A stretch of DNA of 64,000 bases from Candidatus Woesearchaeota archaeon (GTDB taxonomy: Archaea; Nanobdellota; Nanobdellia; Tiddalikarchaeales; Tiddalikarchaeaceae). The position numbers and the translations under genes were made by a program. Shown here piece by piece: positions 2,415 through 22,935 of the stretch (its first letter is position 1; the number at the start of each line of letters is the position of its first letter). Under the pieces are notes generated by a model. The model saw only the letters and a list, made by a program, of their open reading frames with translations, had not been told where the DNA came from and searched no databases. The DNA lies in the NCBI GenBank assembly GCA_964457955.1, contig CAYWEY010000003.1, forward strand, positions 14,439-78,438, read 5' to 3'.

Positions 2415-2592
2415 AAATAGATTAAGATTTTTTTTATTATTTAAAATCTTTTTGGTAAAATTTTTTTAATCAAGAAGTATAATAATTTAAGATTGCTTTA
2501 AGAAGATAACAATGATGCATGTAATGTTTACTTAATTAGTTATGATTCTTTTAAGATAATAATAATTTAGAAAACAATAATTATTCTGCTTT

Positions 2593-3060
2593 TAACACAC
2601 ACTCATATTAACCATGTAGGTAATAATTACTTGTTCAACAATATTTTCATGCACGAGATTTCTGAAGAAAAAATCAGGAATAATGATTTATGCACTTATC
2701 TTATTGAAAGATTAGTAAATTTTAATCCACAGAATGCTTTTCCAAAAAAAACAAGTTATTAACAATAAAAGATGGTGAAGTTATTAATTTTGATGAGATT
2801 GAGTTAAGAGTTATTCACACTCCAAGACACTCTTCTGACAACATATGTATTTATGAACCAAACAAGAAATGGTTTTTCACGGGCAATACTTATTACAATG
2901 GAGAAGCATACTTTATTAATAACGAGTCGGATATGAGTGACTGGAAGAAATCTTTATCTATTTTATCAGAATTGGGGGGAAAATCTTATTCTTCCAGGAC
3001 ATAATGAAATACTATGTGGAGAAGTTAACAAATATTTTTTAGAGAATATTGTTTTTTTTA
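2593..3060 (+). pseudogene. decayed metallo-beta-lactamase-fold hydrolase (frameshifted, catalytic motifs mutated)
   Basis: Three frame fragments: LTHTHINHVGN (HxHxDH with D->N), KDGEVINFDEIELRVIHTPRHSSDNICIYEPNKKWFFTGNTYY (HTPGH and TGDT motifs degenerate), ILPGHNEI. No intact ORF. Confidence 0.5.
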
Positions 3061-3101
3061 GGAAAAAGTTTATAATAATGTTTTTTTCGAATAAGTTATT
3101 T

Positions 3102-3536
3102 ATGAATAAATCATTGGATGATTATTTAGGATGCGAAGCATTATTACGCAAATTCTTTGATACTGTCGGGGCATGCAGTTCTTGCAGAATAAGAGGATAC
3201 ACTCACTGCTGTGATGGAAAATGGTATCTTATTGATAGTAATAAATTACTGGACATTGAGAGGGAGAGAAGTTATGGTGAACCCAAAACTGATGATATGT
3301 GTGGTTATCATACTGAGAAAGGTTGTTTGTTGAAAACTCATAAGAGTCCTGTTTGTATAAGTTATGTTTGTGATTTTTTTAAGAAATTCCTTTTTAGTAA
3401 AGATGTGGATTATAATGGTCTGAGAATAAGAAGGTTTCTTAAAAAAGTGTTATCAGGAAAAGCGGAAGAAAGAGAAATATTTGAATTTAAAGAAAAAATA
3501 AGTGATTATATCTCTAAAGTCAGAGGTTGTATTTAA
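3102..3536 (+). CDS. YkgJ-family (CxxCxxCC, COG0727) Cys-rich putative Fe-S/Zn protein, paralog 1
   Basis: CSSCRIRGYTHCC and YHTEKGCLLKTHKSPVCISYVC motifs; homology starts at internal Met (3102), not at the ORF start 2937. Confidence 0.55.
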   Translation: MNKSLDDYLGCEALLRKFFDTVGACSSCRIRGYTHCCDGKWYLIDSNKLLDIERERSYGEPKTDDMCGYHTEKGCLLKTHKSPVCISYVCDFFKKFLFSKDVDYNGLRIRRFLKKVLSGKAEEREIFEFKEKISDYISKVRGCI

Positions 3537-3982
3537 AAATGAATGATTCTCTGAAAAATTATCTTGAGTGTGAAGAATTGCTTAATGATTTTTTTAAAGA
3601 ATTAGGTTACTGCAGGAGTGATTGTTTCTTGGATTATGATGTTCGTTGCTGTAAAAAAAATTATTTCGGGACTAAAAGATTGCTTGAAGAGTTGCATAAT
3701 GAACGTTTAAAGAAGTACGGTATTCCTGCTGAGAAAATAAGAGAATGCTCTTATCATACTGAGAAAGGTTGTTTACTTGAAACTCATAAATCTCCCACTT
3801 GTCTTGCATGGGTTTGTAATTCATTGGAAGAATATTTACACTCTATTGGTGTTGAATACTATCTTGTGGATATACGTTTTTCTCTTATGCAAATATTAAG
3901 AAATGAACTTGGTCAAGATGAGATAATTTGCTTTAAGCAAAATATTAAAAATATGACTAAAAAAATTAAAAGTTTAAAATGA
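3527..3982 (+). CDS. YkgJ-family (CxxCxxCC) Cys-rich protein, paralog 2
   Basis: NYLECEELLN..CRSDC..CC and YHTEKGCLLETHKSPTCLAWVC shared with neighbours. Confidence 0.55.
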   Translation: MYLKMNDSLKNYLECEELLNDFFKELGYCRSDCFLDYDVRCCKKNYFGTKRLLEELHNERLKKYGIPAEKIRECSYHTEKGCLLETHKSPTCLAWVCNSLEEYLHSIGVEYYLVDIRFSLMQILRNELGQDEIICFKQNIKNMTKKIKSLK

Positions 3983-4422
3983 ATGAAGAAAAATTAAGGA
4001 AGTGTTTGGATAATTATCTTGAGTGTGAAGAATTGCTTAATAAATTATTTAAAAAAATTAATCTTTGCCCGTCTTTCTGCAATTATAATCATTGCTGCAG
4101 AGTAGATATGTGGAAATATGATGATTTTGATGCATACTATTATTTACATAAGGAAAGGGTTGAAAAATACGGCAATCCTCCTGAAGACTGGTTAGATTCT
4201 TTCAAAGGAAAGTGCTGGTATCTTAAAAAAGATGGGTGTGCGTTACAAACTCATAAACCAGTATGGTGTCTTTCCCATATTTGTTTTGAAAAACAAATCA
4301 AAATAAATTATGACAAAAACGAAGTGCAGGATAAACTTATTAAAATTATCAGAAATATGATGCCAGAAGAAGAAACACATCTTTTTAAAGAAAAAATTAA
4401 GAAATTTATTAAGAAAATATAA
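3979..4422 (+). CDS. YkgJ-family (CxxCxxCC) Cys-rich protein, paralog 3
   Basis: NYLECEELLN..CPSFCNYNHCC and GCALQTHKPVWCLSHIC; 4-nt overlap with paralog 2. Confidence 0.55.
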   Translation: MNEEKLRKCLDNYLECEELLNKLFKKINLCPSFCNYNHCCRVDMWKYDDFDAYYYLHKERVEKYGNPPEDWLDSFKGKCWYLKKDGCALQTHKPVWCLSHICFEKQIKINYDKNEVQDKLIKIIRNMMPEEETHLFKEKIKKFIKKI

Positions 4423-4427
4423 ATAAC

Positions 4428-5216
4428 TTATTTTATATAATGAATCTTATTATTCAGAGTATAATACACTTTTTTATCTTCTTCCCAGAAGTTTTCAAAA
4501 CCTTCTTTTAATCCTTTCAGGAATATTTTTTCATTAAACTGTTCTTCATTAGTCTTTATTATTGTTCCGCAGAGACCTAAATTTTTTGTCCATACTGGAT
4601 GGAAGTCAGTGCCACTCATCATTCTTATTCTTTCATCCAAAGATAACTGTATATTCTCAAATGTAGGGTTTGTTAAATTAATCATGTCTGGCTTAATTTT
4701 TTTAATTATTTTTCTCTTTTTATTTTTAGGAACGACTGTTGCTTTCTTTTTCTTCCCGTTTTTTCTGCAATAAATATCATAAACTATTCCATTATTCTTG
4801 AAAGGATGCGTATACCAGGAATGCTTGTTTTTCCCAGAATCCTTATACTCTATTTTATGGTAAGTAATTCCGTATTCTTTGTTGAACTTATTAATTTCTA
4901 CTCCAGGAATAATGTTCTTGAAAGATTTTAGTTTTTTATGAATTCTTTCATGAAGTTCATCAAGTGTTGGCTGCATGTCAATAATATCACTTAAAGAACA
5001 CATTTTTTTGTGATCTATGTAATGAATTAATGAAATTATTCCATCATAACCTGCTTCTTCTGCATAATTAATCTTTTCTTCAGGTTCTTTTATAGATTCA
5101 TATTTCTTGGACAAATGATAATGAGCATCTATTAATTGATATTCATCTTCGGGAAATAATTTTCTCACATTCTTAATTATCCTCTTATTTCTTGAAGTAA
5201 CTTTTTTATAAATCAT
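4428..5216 (-). CDS. PHP-domain-like metal-dependent phosphoesterase (tentative)
   Basis: N-terminal IDAHYHLS and C-terminal GTDFH resemble PHP domain motifs; Lys-rich insert. Confidence 0.35.
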   Translation of the reverse strand: MIYKKVTSRNKRIIKNVRKLFPEDEYQLIDAHYHLSKKYESIKEPEEKINYAEEAGYDGIISLIHYIDHKKMCSLSDIIDMQPTLDELHERIHKKLKSFKNIIPGVEINKFNKEYGITYHKIEYKDSGKNKHSWYTHPFKNNGIVYDIYCRKNGKKKKATVVPKNKKRKIIKKIKPDMINLTNPTFENIQLSLDERIRMMSGTDFHPVWTKNLGLCGTIIKTNEEQFNEKIFLKGLKEGFENFWEEDKKVYYTLNNKIHYIK

Positions 5217-5655
5217 TAATTTAAAATAACTAAATTTATTTTTAAAAATTATCGTTACTACTATTAAGATTTTTTTTTATAAACCAGGACTAATTATTGG
5301 TGAATGCTGAATGTTTCTTAAAACAATTTAATCTAAAGAAGGTTTTCTTTTTCTGAATTATTTCTTAGGATCAAATCTTTTAATTTAAATTCTTCAGTCA
5401 TATTTATTGAATAATGCTTCAATATCATCAATCTTTTTCTTATAATTTTCATTAATCAAATAATCCTTATCCAAACAAATTATGTGTATTTTCTGAAAAT
5501 TATTCTTCTGCAATACTATCTCGGTTCCAGGCATTAAGATTTACTTCTGCATTAACTTATAATCAACTATTCCAAAATCCTTAAAGCCTGAAAAACTACT
5601 TGTTATTCCAAATAAATACTCCCATAATTTATGAATTAATCGTTAAATTTTTTTA

Positions 5656-6663: not shown

Positions 6664-6883
6664 TTAAGTATTTTATTAAAATTATTATTCCTACAATCAT
6701 TCCAATTATTAGTAAAGTATTCTTTATTTTTTCATTTGTTCCAAAAACTATAGGGAATGGACCTATCATTATTAATCCTGCTGAACTAGTTTTTGAATTA
6801 TTGAATGCTGAGAAAATAAGGAATATTGCAAAGAATAATAGTATTATTCCAATTATTATCTGGAATTCTTTCATTTTCAACAA
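6656..6883 (-). CDS. small membrane protein (DUF131-like, GPFPIVFG motif)
   Basis: 75 aa, two TM helices, IMIGPFPIVFG motif reminiscent of the archaeal DUF131/TIGR00304 family. Confidence 0.4.
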   Translation of the reverse strand: MLKMKEFQIIIGIILLFFAIFLIFSAFNNSKTSSAGLIMIGPFPIVFGTNEKIKNTLLIIGMIVGIIILIKYLNV

Positions 6884-7245
6884 TCACTTTGTATATTACA
6901 ATTAGTATTTCTACAGGAAGTTACACTTGGACAATATTCTTCTTCATTTATTTCCCCATCATTATTAATATCACTGTTTTTACAGCAGTAACTCTTTCTG
7001 TCAGACTCGCTTTGTGACAATCTGTATGTTCTGCAGAGGCTTTCACAATCCCTTCTTAATTGTTGTAATATAGTTTCTTCCTGTGTAGGTATTTTTCCTT
7101 CAGTAGCGCTTAAACCGCTTGAAACCATTTTTGCTCCTATAATTATTATTATACTAAAAACCATTAATCCAAGAATTATGAAAACATATACTGCTTTAGG
7201 CTTCTTGCCTTCTGGTTTGATTTTTTCAGCAAATCCTTCATCCAT
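6877..7245 (-). CDS. membrane-anchored Cys-rich small protein
   Basis: 122 aa, N-terminal TM helix, C-terminal Cys-rich acidic tail; 7-nt overlap with downstream gene. Confidence 0.4.
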   Translation of the reverse strand: MDEGFAEKIKPEGKKPKAVYVFIILGLMVFSIIIIIGAKMVSSGLSATEGKIPTQEETILQQLRRDCESLCRTYRLSQSESDRKSYCCKNSDINNDGEINEEEYCPSVTSCRNTNCNIQSDC

Positions 7246-7282
7246 GATAATTAATGATATTTTTTTATTTAATAAAATTATT

Positions 7283-8542: not shown

Positions 8543-9551
8543 TCAAGTATTAAGAACCCACGTTTTTTTTAAGGATTGTGAGAATTTTTTAAATACTATC
8601 TTTCTTTTATTTTCTGAGAATTGTCCTAAGAAATTGAAACAGAAAATTACATCATACTTGTTCTTAAGTTTCTCTTTGAAAACGTCTTTTACTTCAAAAT
8701 TAACTTTAGTTTTAATATCATTTCTCATCACTATTTTTTTATTCTTAGGAACTTCAAAGAATCTTGAGCATGCATCAATTTCAGAACCAAAATCTGCCAG
8801 AGGATCTTTTCTGACAATAGTTGATAAATCATATATTCCTTTTTCTGCTCTTTTAATACATGTTGGTGAATATGTCAAAAGCATCAATAGTGTAACTCTG
8901 TAAGTTTTCTGATTCATTAATCATTGCTATTGAATAAGGTTCTCTTCCTTCAGAACAAGGAAAGGAAAGAATTTTCACTTTTTTTCTATTTTTGAGAACA
9001 GGAATAATACTTTTTTTATAGTACTCTAATGATGGAACATCTCTAAAAAATCTGGTGTGCTTTGAAACTGCTTTGTTCCTAATAATGTGCTTATAATTCA
9101 GTTTCTTATTTTTTATTTCCTCCCAATTCTTATCAATATACTCAAATAGTTCTTTCTTTGTACGATTTTTCTTCCATGATTCTTCGAAAACACTCATTAC
9201 AAAAACAGGATTAAAACTTTTAACGAATTCCTTAAATTTTTCTTTTGATAAAGGCTCTTCCTTATTAATCAAACAAAGAGTCTTAATATCTCCTTCAACA
9301 AATTCTTCACTAAGAGTCTTATCAAATAATTCTTTTGCTTCTTTTTTTAATAGTTTAAATAATTCTTTTAATTTATCTTTATTTTCAAGCAAGTTCTTTT
9401 CTAATATTTCTAATTGTTTTTTAGTGAAATTATTTTTTTTCCCTATTTTATTAATAAACCCTATTGCTTTATTCAGACTTTCTTCGTCTCTTATGCGGAG
9501 GAATTCATTAATTATTATTAATTTTTTCTTGTAATTTTTGATATTCTTCAT
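8543..9551 (-). pseudogene. CheR-type SAM-dependent methyltransferase split by a frameshift (ORFs 8853-9551 and 8543-8917)
   Basis: Upstream ORF ends HTRFFRDVPSLEYY...KILSFPCSEGREPYSIAM...IDAFDIF; downstream ORF continues CIKRAEKGIY...YDVIFCFNFLGQF. Together these give the full CheR methyltransferase domain across a -1 shift near 8880-8900. N-terminal 150 aa is a K/E-rich coiled coil. Confidence 0.45.
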
Positions 9552-11687: not shown

Positions 11688-11726
11688 AAATCCTATTTCT
11701 GGATTCAATAGTATAAAAATTATATC

Positions 11727-11895
11727 GGGCTCGAGGGGATTTGAACCCCCGACCTACTGCTTAATCCCCTAAATATGTTCATAGTAGGTCAGTGTCTTCA
11801 TATGATTTCATGAGTAAAATCTCAGTTGACCTTCTTCTAATCATAATTTTTTAGGTTAGGAGGCAGTCGCTCTATCCAAACTGAGCTACGAGCCC
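11727..11895 (-). tRNA. tRNA-Arg (anticodon CCT) with a 95-nt intron at the canonical 37/38 position
   Basis: 5' exon 11857-11895 (GGGCUCGUAGCUCAGUUUGGAUAGAGCGACUGCCUCCUA) and 3' exon 11727-11761 (AGCAGUAGGUCGGGGGUUCAAAUCCCCUCGAGCCC) join to a 74-nt cloverleaf; intron 11762-11856. Confidence 0.7.
11789..11844 (-). ncRNA. candidate C/D-box sRNA embedded in the tRNA-Arg(CCT) intron
   Basis: In tRNA orientation: AUGAUUA (C-like), 12 nt, CUGA (D'), 10 nt, AUGAAAU (weak C'), 12 nt, CUGA (D). 56 nt, typical archaeal C/D sRNA size; the C box deviates from RUGAUGA. Confidence 0.35.
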
Positions 11896-19161: not shown

Positions 19162-19435
19162 GTGGTTGGTTAGTACCCTGCCTTCTGTACAACCCCTATT
19201 AACTTTGAATAGTAGGGTGTTGGCAACATTCTACTAAGCGCACCAGTGTGCTTGCACTTCTCAACAGGTTAAGAGATTTTCCATCCCAAATTCATGAAAC
19301 CTCAATTCAAATATCATCGTGCTCATGAAAGGGTGTTTTTCTGCTTCTCATTAACAAATCCTTAAGATTAATTGTCTGTTTCTCAGTGGGCAGAGGTTCC
19401 CCAGCAATCAGCCGTGAGTTGCCTAAACCAACCAC
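19162..19435. ncRNA. unidentified GC-enriched structured RNA candidate (~274 nt)
   Basis: ~42% GC island in ~28% GC DNA; perfect 10-bp terminal helix GTGGTTGGTT/AACCAACCAC plus several internal hairpins; no ORF. Could not be matched to 5S, SRP RNA or RNase P RNA consensus by eye. Confidence 0.3.
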
Positions 19436-19989: not shown

Positions 19990-22935
19990 ATTATTTGTGA
20001 GTTTCAGCTTATTAGTGAACGCGGGCTTAACACGTCGTTGCCTTCGTGCTTACACCCCGTTTCTATCTAACCCATCATTTAATGGAAAGCTTCAGACGAT
20101 GCCTCTTTTTGCGGAGGGCTTCGAGCTTAGATGCTTTCAGCTCTTATCCCATTGGGACGTAGCTGCCCAGCGTGCCTTGTCAGACAACTGGTAGACCAGT
20201 GGTCCCGGAGGATCGTTCCTCTCGTACTCAACCCTCCTTCCACTCAGGCATCGAACACTTCCAGTAGATATAAGCCGAACTGAGTCACCTCGTTCTGAAC
20301 CCAGCTCACGATCCCTTTTAATCGGTGAACACCCGCACCCTTGGCCGCTTGTGTACGGCCAGGATAGAGAGAGCCGACATCGATGAAGCAAGCCCCGCCG
20401 TAGATGCATTCTCCCGGGCGGGACAACTCTGTTATCCCCAGGGTAGCTTTTCTGTCAGACGTATTCCTCAAAAAAAGGATATATACGCGTTCGCTAAACC
20501 ACACTTTCGTGTCAGAACTTCTCGCTGTGCGAAGTCCTGTCAGGCCAGCTTTTGCTTTTGCACTCTACTCCGGATTTCTGTCCCGGATGAGCTGACCTTA
20601 GGGCGCCGGTGATAAATTTTCGCCGGCGTGCCACCCCAGCCAAACTGCCCGACAACAGGTGTCCCAAGAGATAAATCTCAAGGTAAGCATTATCATCCAT
20701 AATTGACAGTGTCCCATTGACGGCTCAGCAACACCCGAAAGTATTGCGTCGAAGCCTTCTGTCTACGCTTCGAATTACGGGTAATAACGCAGCTGCAGGC
20801 TGCAGTAAAGTTCCTGGGGTCTTCTCATCCCACTGGAAGTCCCCGGCTTCTGCACCGGGCAAGTGTATTCACAGGGTTCAAGTTTGGGACAGTAGGAACC
20901 TAGTTACGTCGTTCGCAAAGCCACTAATTAGATGGCAAGGCATTGCGCTACCATAAGAAGGTCATAGTTACCTCCGTCGTTTACCAGTCCTTAGGCCCGT
21001 TGAACCGGGATTTCAGATACTGGCACTGGACAGACGTCACGGGTTATACAAGACGTTTCCGTTTAGCAACCCGCTATGTTTTTGTTAAACAGTCCGGTTC
21101 CCCTAGTCACTGCGCCCAGCACTCGCAGTCTTAAGACTACGAACGCTGAGACCCCTTCTCCCGAAGTTACGGGGCGAATTTGCCGAGTTCCCTAAACTTG
21201 ATTACACCCTACAGGCCTTAGGCTACTCACCCAGGACACCTGTGTCGGTTCTGGGTACGGTTAATCAGAGTCCTTGAAGATGAGATTTTCACGGGCTCCA
21301 GGAATTAATTGAACTCGAGTACACGAGCTGTTCTCAGTATTAATCCATTTCTCCTCATTACGAGACTCCATGGACTTGTACTGATTAAATAACACGACAG
21401 TGTTACTCAACCTATCCCGAAGCGTCTCTCAATCCTCCTTGCGTTGCCGCACGTATCTGATTAGTACAGGAATATTAACCTGTTTCCTTTTCCCCACTTA
21501 GCAGTTAAGCCGTGAGTTAAGACCGACTAACTCTTCGCTGACGAGCGGTGCGAAGAAACCCTTGTCCTTACGGCCATGTGGATTCTCACCACACTATGAT
21601 GCTACTACCGGCAAGATACTCAAACCCAAAACGGTCCATGCAAACTCACGTTCGCACTTCTAACCACTCAGGTCGCCTTCCTACCCGGACACGTCCTACA
21701 ACGTGTCCCCTAAAGTCTCGGTAATTGGCTTAGCCCCGTCCATTTACAGCGCCACCAACCTTGATGAGTAAGCTATTACGCACTTATTATAGGTTTGCTG
21801 CTTCTAAGCCTACCTCCTCACTGTCTCTGGTTGATGACAACCTCATTTGCACTTAGTCAATATTTTGGGACCTTAACTTTAGTCTGGGTTGTTCCCCTCT
21901 CGAACATAAGGCTTACCCCTATGCTCCGACTCCCACCATCTCAGATATTGCAGCATTCGGAGTTTGACTTGGGATCGGGAAACTTTTGTCTCCTCGCATG
22001 CCAAATCAGTATCTCTACCTCTGCAACCATCTCCGGTGAGGCTAGACTGTGGCCTAATTTGGAAGGAACCAGCTATCGCCGAACACGATTGGCTTTTCAC
22101 CCCTATTCCCAGCTCTCGGGAACGCCTTGCTCACAGTACCCCTACAGTCCTCCACGAACTGGAAAGTCCGCTTCAACTTGTCCAGGAATAGATCGTTCGG
22201 CTTCGGGTATTAAAGCAGTAACTTCAGGCGCTATTCACACCCTGCCCCTCGCATGCTGTGGGCATAATTGCTTTCGCTTCGGCTTCACACTAAACGTGTT
22301 TAACCTCGCCACTACCTTAAATTCCTTGCCTCTTTGTCCAAAAGGAACACTGCAACACTCGAAGTGCCGCAGCCTCCTGTGACCATTAGGTTTCAGGATC
22401 TTTTAACTCCCTTTTACGGGTTCTTTTCAACTTTCCCTCACGGTACTTGTACGCTATCGGTATCCTAACCTATTTAGGGTTGGAAGTTTTTGACTCCCAT
22501 CTTCTTAGAGGAATACCATCCCCTAATACTCTGGGAACTGGATATCATTCTTTTTACTTCCTTTACGGGACTGTCACCCTCTATGGTGCTCTATTCCAAG
22601 AGACTTTAAGTCGTAAAAACAATGAATGTTTCCAGCCCAAAACAGCACATCTCACTCATGTCACCATGACTGATTCACTTTGCCCTATTCCCCTTTCGAT
22701 CGACTCTAATAAGGGAATCCCTAACTTGGTTTCTCTTCCTGCGGGTACTAAGATGATTCAATTCTCCGCGTTCCTCCTGCCAAAAGCAGTAACCCCGAAG
22801 GGTTCGGATTCCTATTCGGGAATTCCTGGCTCAAAGGCTCCATGCGCCTCCCCAGGACTTATCGCAGCTTGGCACGCCCTTCATCAGGGTTAGGATCCAA
22901 GTCATCCACCTAATGGCGTCTTTACTCCACATCAT
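19990..22935 (-). rRNA. rrl: 23S (LSU) ribosomal RNA
   Basis: Minus strand 5' region GGUGGAUGACUUGG...CCCUGAUGAAGGGCGUGCCAAGCUGCGAUAAG (22861-22910), sarcin-ricin loop AGUACGAGAGGAACGAUC (20215-20232), GC-rich ~2.95 kb with no coding potential; ends approximate (+/-40 nt). Confidence 0.9.

Follow-up and report, generated by a model that had tools for sequence, protein, structure and literature searches.

Three consecutive, intact genes, here called A, B and C, lie within positions 3102-4422 on the forward strand of a 64,000-nt stretch of DNA from a Candidatus Woesearchaeota archaeon (contig CAYWEY010000003.1, positions 14,439-78,438 of the forward strand; hereafter, the window), and they are diverged tandem paralogs from a family that is unnamed in any database tested. 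Their products, of 144, 147 and 147 amino acids (aa), each retain all eight cysteines of that family. We suggest that the family is a very divergent branch of the YkgJ/CxxCxxCC superfamily (PF03692, FliB, DpdM), and that its members would be two-site metalloproteins carrying at least one iron-sulfur (Fe-S) site and acting as a redox or group-transfer module, in which the paralogs may cooperate. We put the probability of this reading at roughly 0.55.

Three diverged copies of an unnamed family

A tandem triplication of diverged cysteine-rich paralogs had been proposed from an earlier inspection of the sequence alone (the original prediction), and it stands. Pairwise protein identity among A, B and C is 39-40%, 38 alignment columns are invariant across the three, nine of them cysteines, and synonymous sites between the copies are at or near saturation (pS 0.60-0.73), which makes dN/dS between them uninformative. 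Copies this far apart are not identical duplicates and hence do not stem from duplication during assembly. The sequence is moreover identical, at all 6634 overlapping bases, to an independent assembly (Logan, run SRR7048218), and an assembly artefact is thus refuted. The motifs thought to be common to the copies need some narrowing. The Cx2-3C..CC cluster is indeed present in all (Cx2C...CC in A, Cx3C...CC in B and C), but NYLECEELLN is exact only in B and C, with DYLGCEALLR in its place in A, and YHTEKGCLL(K/E)THKSP.C is shared by A and B, its counterpart in C being WYLKKDGCALQTHKPVWC. The NYLECEELLN segment is encoded in B and C by an identical 30-nt tract, even though the two proteins are only ~40% identical; the probability that all 10 codons would agree, given the codon usage of the genome, is ~9e-4, and this suggests limited gene conversion. 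Identity among the three copies does not clearly exceed their identity to outsiders (P0004, for instance, is ~40% identical to B), and a neighbour-joining tree of 142 family members does not resolve them as one clade.

The family itself is sizeable. With a profile of the three copies, a full HMMER search recovered representatives of 216 clusters (defined at 50% identity) at E<=1e-3, of which 103 also pass E<=1e-10; a word-indexed protein search returned only the query itself, and the 101-sequence profile only 3 proteins. A family alignment was built from 101 representatives, and 47 weaker relatives were scanned alongside them, for 148 members in all. Four of the eight family cysteines occur without exception across the 101 representatives, the other four are at least 90% conserved, and in the top 20 all eight are invariant; the adjacent CC pair is at least 90% conserved in the former set and invariant in the latter. 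Positions occupied by Y, E, F, Y, G and L are likewise at least 90% conserved. The resulting signature runs from an N-terminal helix, YLExExLLxxFF, through C-x2-4-C, a variable loop of 4-30 residues and (G)CC, to a helix LxxxRxxKYGxP, a second cysteine module C-x-Y-H-x3-G-C-x-L-x2-H-K-x-P-x-C-x4-C and three helices at the C-terminal end. A related second subfamily (e.g., P0115 and P0120) retains the same cysteines. An AlphaFold2 model computed from the 101-sequence alignment (pLDDT 89.6, pTM 0.85) is made up of helices and a short beta hairpin at the C.YH...GC element. Members of the family are small (~145-180 aa), mostly helical, cytoplasmic eight-cysteine proteins.

No existing annotation accounts for these proteins. 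No Pfam family is matched consistently by any of the 148 members, NCBIfam gives no match, and those members that bear an NCBI or JGI name are all called "hypothetical protein", none of them being named as YkgJ family. Scans of the 101 members for anti-phage defence and phage families (PADLOC and PHROGs) produced scattered single matches at chance level, a sequence profile search of the PDB produced chance matches only, and Foldseek found no structural match in BFVD. The degenerate DNA pattern described below had 0 matches among IMG/VR viral contigs, and a viral origin was rejected on that count. The HdrB CCG domain and WhiB-like proteins, also considered as candidates, were dropped because their motifs differ and no model match supported them. 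While no new biological principle is indicated, ~216 well-conserved clusters labelled only as hypothetical are a substantial gap, and a family definition would improve the annotation of DPANN archaea, Methanothrix and Desulfobacterales. As a separate observation, in three loci (L008, positions 4027-5396, L079 and L082) the first ~30 residues (MENQYKPxAxExxGxIY...) of a 268-aa family member recur in the product of an unrelated 187-aa gene immediately upstream, and this N-terminal segment appears to have been duplicated.

Distribution and copy number

Loci encoding the family were sought with a degenerate DNA pattern for its C-terminal module (~41 bits). Among GTDB species representatives the pattern found 50 loci, 47 of which encode true members, and in metagenomes it found 69, of which 68 do. 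The GTDB loci fall into DPANN archaea (Woesearchaeota, Nanoarchaeia and Nanobdellota; ~15 loci), Desulfobacterales (~20) and Methanothrix/Methanosaeta (~13). The DPANN, Desulfobacterales and Methanothrix lineages are largely or strictly anaerobic. The neighbour-joining tree is star-like, with Desulfobacterales and Methanothrix each forming one tight clade inside a long-branched radiation of DPANN type, and although the tree is poorly resolved, this arrangement suggests horizontal transfer. Gene neighbourhoods share no partner gene across lineages. The conservation of neighbourhood that the original prediction had put forward as a check is thus seen only as synteny between close relatives. Nine loci (cluster c3: L021, L043, L081, L098, L103, L108, L111, L119 and L120), which include low-GC loci of Desulforegulaceae type and others of 41-45% GC, have an open reading frame (ORF) of ~300 aa, no more than a few kb from the family gene, that resembles a tyrosine recombinase (..RHTPASIMV..HSDIKTTMRYLH); this putative recombinase may reflect mobility of the locus.

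The family had been expected to be single-copy as a rule, and the wider survey agrees. The family hidden Markov model (HMM) finds exactly three copies in the window and one in almost every other locus; across ~115 related loci, all those of Desulfobacterales and Methanothrix, and most of those of DPANN, have a single copy. The other arrays are few. A locus from Nanoarchaeia (L006) has at least two copies, L057 has two that are 52% identical, and L058 and L084, which overlap through a shared copy (100% over 96 residues), jointly hold at least four tandem copies. All arrays are on low-GC contigs of DPANN type. In these other arrays identity by BLAST is 36-52% within an array and mostly 22-34% between arrays, a pattern that points to lineage-specific duplications. 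The L057 locus is syntenic with two Woesearchaeota loci that have one copy each (L015 and L022), and both L057 copies share 49-51% identity with these orthologues. On a JGI contig of 1516 bp, one polypeptide (P0055) contains two family domains, the first truncated and the second complete; either tandem paralogs have fused naturally here, or a stop codon was lost through a sequencing error. If it is a fusion, it might be taken as a weak Rosetta-stone hint that the paralogs interact. Taken with the patchy spread of the family among anaerobes that often occur together, the recurrence of arrays in DPANN-type contigs only offers a small but concrete case in which to study gene exchange and paralog diversification in reduced genomes.

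Probable relation to the YkgJ superfamily and proposed function

The original prediction assigned the three proteins to the YkgJ-type CxxCxxCC family (COG0727) and named a PF03692 match as its check and the absence of one as its refutation. In its literal form this assignment fails: no copy matches PF03692, and the literal motif (C-x2-C-x2-CC) is absent from all three, the family pattern being C-x2-4-C-x(4-30)-CC. At the level of the superfamily, the assignment is plausible. The spacing C-x7-C-x9-C-x4-C is identical in A, B and C and in two PF03692-confirmed proteins, L124, a plasmid YkgJ-family protein (31.2 bits on PF03692, whose Pfam gathering threshold is 23 bits), and L085, and the residues that flank the cysteines are similar (copy B, CSYHTEKGCLLETHKSPTCLAWVC; L124, CALLKEGACSIYRERPQTCRDYDC; L085, CVYLTNHGCSIHDHKPAMCREYDC). 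The three copies also follow the PF03692 module, C..(F/Y)L...G.C.I(Y/H)..(R/K)P..C, which often continues with ..(Y/F).C. L085 provides a useful bridge from one family to the other. Encoded at 6839-7282 (-) on metagenome contig WBZO01003653.1, of 60% GC, it is a 130-aa protein with a canonical CGECTACC that scores 34.1 bits on PF03692 and 31 bits on the eight-cysteine family HMM, where its CC aligns with the family CC; shuffles of L085 in which the searched pattern was kept unchanged average 16.4 +/- 4.8 bits against that HMM, the real score being reached in 5 of 2000. Finally, hhalign gave probabilities of 59.5%, 68.8% and 70.6% (E ~4e-5 to 9e-5) against mixed alignments of PF03692 type, the aligned region being exactly the C-x7-C-x9-C-x4-C module and, in one case, the CC pairs as well.

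Compared with PF03692 proteins (YkgJ, YcgN and YeiW; COG0727), members of the eight-cysteine family are thus alike in being small, cysteine-rich and soluble, in having an N-terminal cluster that ends in CC, and in the spacing of the second module, with an aromatic or hydrophobic residue two positions after its first cysteine, a glycine before the second and a basic residue plus proline before the third. They differ in adding the N-terminal helix YLExExLLxxFF, the R..KYGxP helix and three C-terminal helices. On the strength of these sequence comparisons, we consider a distant relationship to the YkgJ superfamily probable.

Two characterised proteins of this putative superfamily give the comparison a functional dimension. 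In FliB, the flagellin lysine N-methyltransferase of Salmonella, a CX4CX3CC motif binds an oxygen-sensitive [4Fe-4S] cluster, and eight cysteines are highly conserved (PMC8598068); this variant implies that the spacing of the motif varies among YkgJ-like proteins. By its published description, FliB resembles the present family in its eight conserved cysteines and in an N-terminal motif ending in CC, whereas it is much larger, enterobacterial and dependent on S-adenosylmethionine (SAM), and acts on flagellin; no flagellar or archaellar gene context was seen in the neighbourhoods of the family genes. DpdM, a phage dPreQ1 DNA methyltransferase of the DUF3109 family and a YkgJ homologue, has a CxxxCxxCC motif, and analysis of its AlphaFold model predicts two four-cysteine metal pockets in a 3+1 and 1+3 arrangement, the first formed by three motif cysteines and a distal one, the second by the fourth motif cysteine and three downstream (10.1101/2023.04.13.536721). 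The 4+4 count equals the eight conserved cysteines of the family. Unlike DpdM, the family has no IMG/VR viral matches, no BFVD structural match and no 7-deazaguanine gene context, and Pfam DUF3109 is not matched by any of the 148 members.

We posit, by analogy with DpdM, that the eight cysteines would form two four-ligand metal sites, laid out as C-x2-4-C-x(4-30)-CC followed by C-x7-C-x9-C-x4-C. The first site would combine three of the N-terminal motif cysteines with one distal cysteine, and the second would combine the second cysteine of the CC pair with three downstream cysteines. One or both of these sites would probably contain an oxygen-sensitive Fe-S cluster of the kind known from FliB; we favour Fe-S because of the 4+4 fit to the FliB/DpdM scheme and the apparent restriction of the family to anaerobes. 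The protein would then be a small redox or group-transfer module, possibly for methyl transfer, or a cofactor-bearing subunit. Repeated tandem multiplication in DPANN, along with the one apparent two-domain fusion, suggests that the paralogs may cooperate or may serve diversified partners. Should the family truly be linked to YkgJ, FliB and DpdM, a poorly understood class of cysteine-cluster proteins, two members of which are unconventional methyltransferases, would gain a minimal form of ~145 aa and a convenient model of its metal sites. A bolder version, which we regard as doubtful, would make the family a minimal, hitherto unrecognised Fe-S protein of strict anaerobes, whose hetero-oligomeric paralogs would use the cluster for an unconventional group transfer like that of FliB and DpdM, or would transfer electrons; it would have been exchanged horizontally among DPANN, Methanothrix and Desulfobacterales that occur together, and amplified in tandem in DPANN so as to diversify its targets.

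Several results weigh against the YkgJ-related, Fe-S interpretation. PF03692 gave no match to the three copies at E<=10, to the 101 representatives at E<=0.01 or the 47 weaker relatives at E<=1, or to three consensus sequences and two core fragments at E<=10, and yet the positive controls from E. coli were readily matched (YkgJ 44.6, YcgN 44.5 and YeiW 33.5 bits; E 7e-8 to 2.4e-11). The search that turned up L085 used a DNA pattern taken from the family itself, which is an ascertainment bias, and L124, L126 and L127 were reached through L085, the latter two being below the PF03692 threshold. The hhalign probability is only 0.15% against an enterobacterial YkgJ set, 0.3% against YkgJ, YcgN and YeiW with plasmid YkgJ, and 13% against one of the mixed sets; this spread means that the signal depends on the alignment, and it covers only ~25-60 columns. 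The PF03692 alignments were themselves small, made by hand and gathered in part through the biased probe. A family protein of 145 aa lacks the large substrate-binding parts of FliB, and with no shared partner gene the genomic context offers no functional clue. What the sequences establish is the paralogy of the copies, the conservation, extent and distribution of the family, its unannotated state and the common cysteine spacing; metal binding, the type of metal, a catalytic role and a complex are all things that we infer, and the 4+4 partition of the cysteines is an analogy only.

These weak homology statistics lend themselves to another explanation, namely that both sites are Zn(Cys)4 sites of purely structural importance, without redox chemistry, and that the proteins serve as small adaptors or regulators that bind proteins or nucleic acids; the likeness to YkgJ would then be a convergence of cysteine spacing. 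Two groups of four cysteines suit two zinc sites, the description of PF03692 goes no further than "zinc- or iron-chelating", and in one relative (P0136) the family domain is preceded by a fused HTH_17 DNA-binding domain at the N-terminus. We nevertheless think this unlikely. The identity of C-x7-C-x9-C-x4-C, with similar flanks and with L085 matching both models, exceeds what spacing alone would give, and the adjacent conserved CC pair is a hallmark of the [4Fe-4S] motif of FliB. Zinc would also leave the largely anaerobic host range unexplained, although sampling bias is possible. The isoelectric point of the family (pI; median 6.7, and 5.5-5.7 in Methanothrix and Desulfobacterales) is not consistently basic, which argues against a general nucleic-acid binder.

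A regulatory role may also be imagined with Fe-S clusters in place of zinc. Small, helical proteins rich in conserved cysteines, encoded by stand-alone genes without a conserved enzymatic partner and in one relative fused to a helix-turn-helix domain, could be sensors that report redox state or oxygen by analogy with WhiB, with tandem paralogs giving graded or partner-specific responses. We find this improbable: nothing in Pfam, NCBIfam or the PDB links the family to known regulators, P0136 is the only fusion to a DNA-binding domain in ~150 sequences, and the two characterised relatives in the putative superfamily are methyltransferases. That the array is an artefact or is decaying, through assembly duplication or as redundant copies on their way to becoming pseudogenes, is very hard to credit even though a clear pseudogene adjoins the locus and a CheR-type gene at 8543-9551 is possibly split, given the divergence of the copies, their three intact frames with every family-conserved cysteine and motif retained, the agreement of the independent assembly and the recurrence of arrays in other genomes.

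Gene layout, upstream sequence and neighbouring features

Features of the array and of the sequence just upstream are collected in Table 1. After the stop codon of A there is a gap of 2 nt before B, and B and C overlap by 4 nt (ATGA, the ATG of C lying over the TGA of B); the three genes probably form one transcript. For A, the ATG at 3102 (MNKSL...) is the probable start, the alternative at 3078, used by public gene calls, giving a protein of 152 aa.

Table 1. Features of the A-B-C array and its upstream region (window coordinates)
Feature	Position	Strand	Description
Metallo-beta-lactamase-fold pseudogene remnant	2500..3075 (boundaries approximate)	+	three-frame translation; PF00753 match
TATA-box-like TTTATAAT	3069..3076	+	purine run (AAAAAG) before; ~26-30 nt upstream of ATG 3102
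Copy A (P0002)	3102-3536	+	144 aa; ORF list gives 2937-3536; 2.0e-66 against three-copy profile
Cysteines of copy A			Cx2C-x7-CC ... C-x7-C-x9-C-x4-C
Copy B (P0001)	3539-3982	+	147 aa; ORF list has TTG start at 3527
Cysteines of copy B			Cx3C-x8-CC ... C-x7-C-x9-C-x4-C
Copy C (P0003)	3979-4422	+	147 aa; most diverged of the three
Cysteines of copy C			Cx3C-x4-CC ... C-x7-C-x9-C-x4-C
30-nt tract in B, identical to tract in C	3558-3587; 4013-4042	+; +	encodes NYLECEELLN; found by repeat search

The original prediction had also called the 55-aa N-terminal extension of the first listed ORF spurious and placed it over a dead metallo-beta-lactamase (MBL) gene, and this is borne out. A stitched translation of ~2500-3075 matches Pfam Lactamase_B (PF00753) at E 1.8e-12 and contains the motifs THTHINHVG and LPGHNE, but its frame is broken by internal stops and at least one frameshift, and its metal motif reads HTHINH in place of the HxHxDH type (D to N); this is a pseudogene. 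Copy A continues the reading frame of its last piece (..LPGHNEILCGE..); this accounts for the 199-aa ORF at 2937-3536, and the 55 codons before ATG 3102 are accordingly the in-frame MBL tail and not part of the copy A protein. The TATA-box-like element may act as an archaeal promoter from which A, B and C are transcribed without a leader, starting near 3102; its placement was judged by the general geometry of archaeal promoters, and such a match counts for little in a window of 31% GC. A scan of the locus for sigma-70 promoters and terminators is uninformative, the host being an archaeon.

Upstream, the array is flanked by an HD-domain gene and KsgA, both on the reverse strand, and downstream by a convergent 262-aa gene with no match in Pfam. 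A CheR-type SAM methyltransferase gene at 8543-9551 (-) is seemingly split across two overlapping ORFs (8853-9551 and 8543-8917), with the Pfam CheR match at residues 165-227, close to the C-terminal end of a 232-aa ORF, and, like the nearby MBL pseudogene, it may have suffered a frameshift. In a 122-aa ORF at 6877-7245 (-), a hydrophobic segment that probably spans the membrane lies close to the N-terminus, and the C-terminal part is rich in cysteine (CESLC..CC..C..C..C). This ORF bears no relation to the eight-cysteine family, and its sole Pfam match, to OATP, is weak and below the cutoff (E 0.0048).

Rfam matches to an archaeal large-subunit rRNA at 19992-22935 (-) and an archaeal RNase P RNA at 19163-19434 (-) identify the window as archaeal, the RNase P RNA being just downstream of the rRNA. 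Rfam matched no small-subunit or 5S rRNA anywhere in the window, and the rRNA genes of this genome appear to be unlinked. An Rfam tRNA match that extends across 170 nt at 11726-11895 (-), and for which ARAGORN makes no call, is probably an intron-containing archaeal tRNA.

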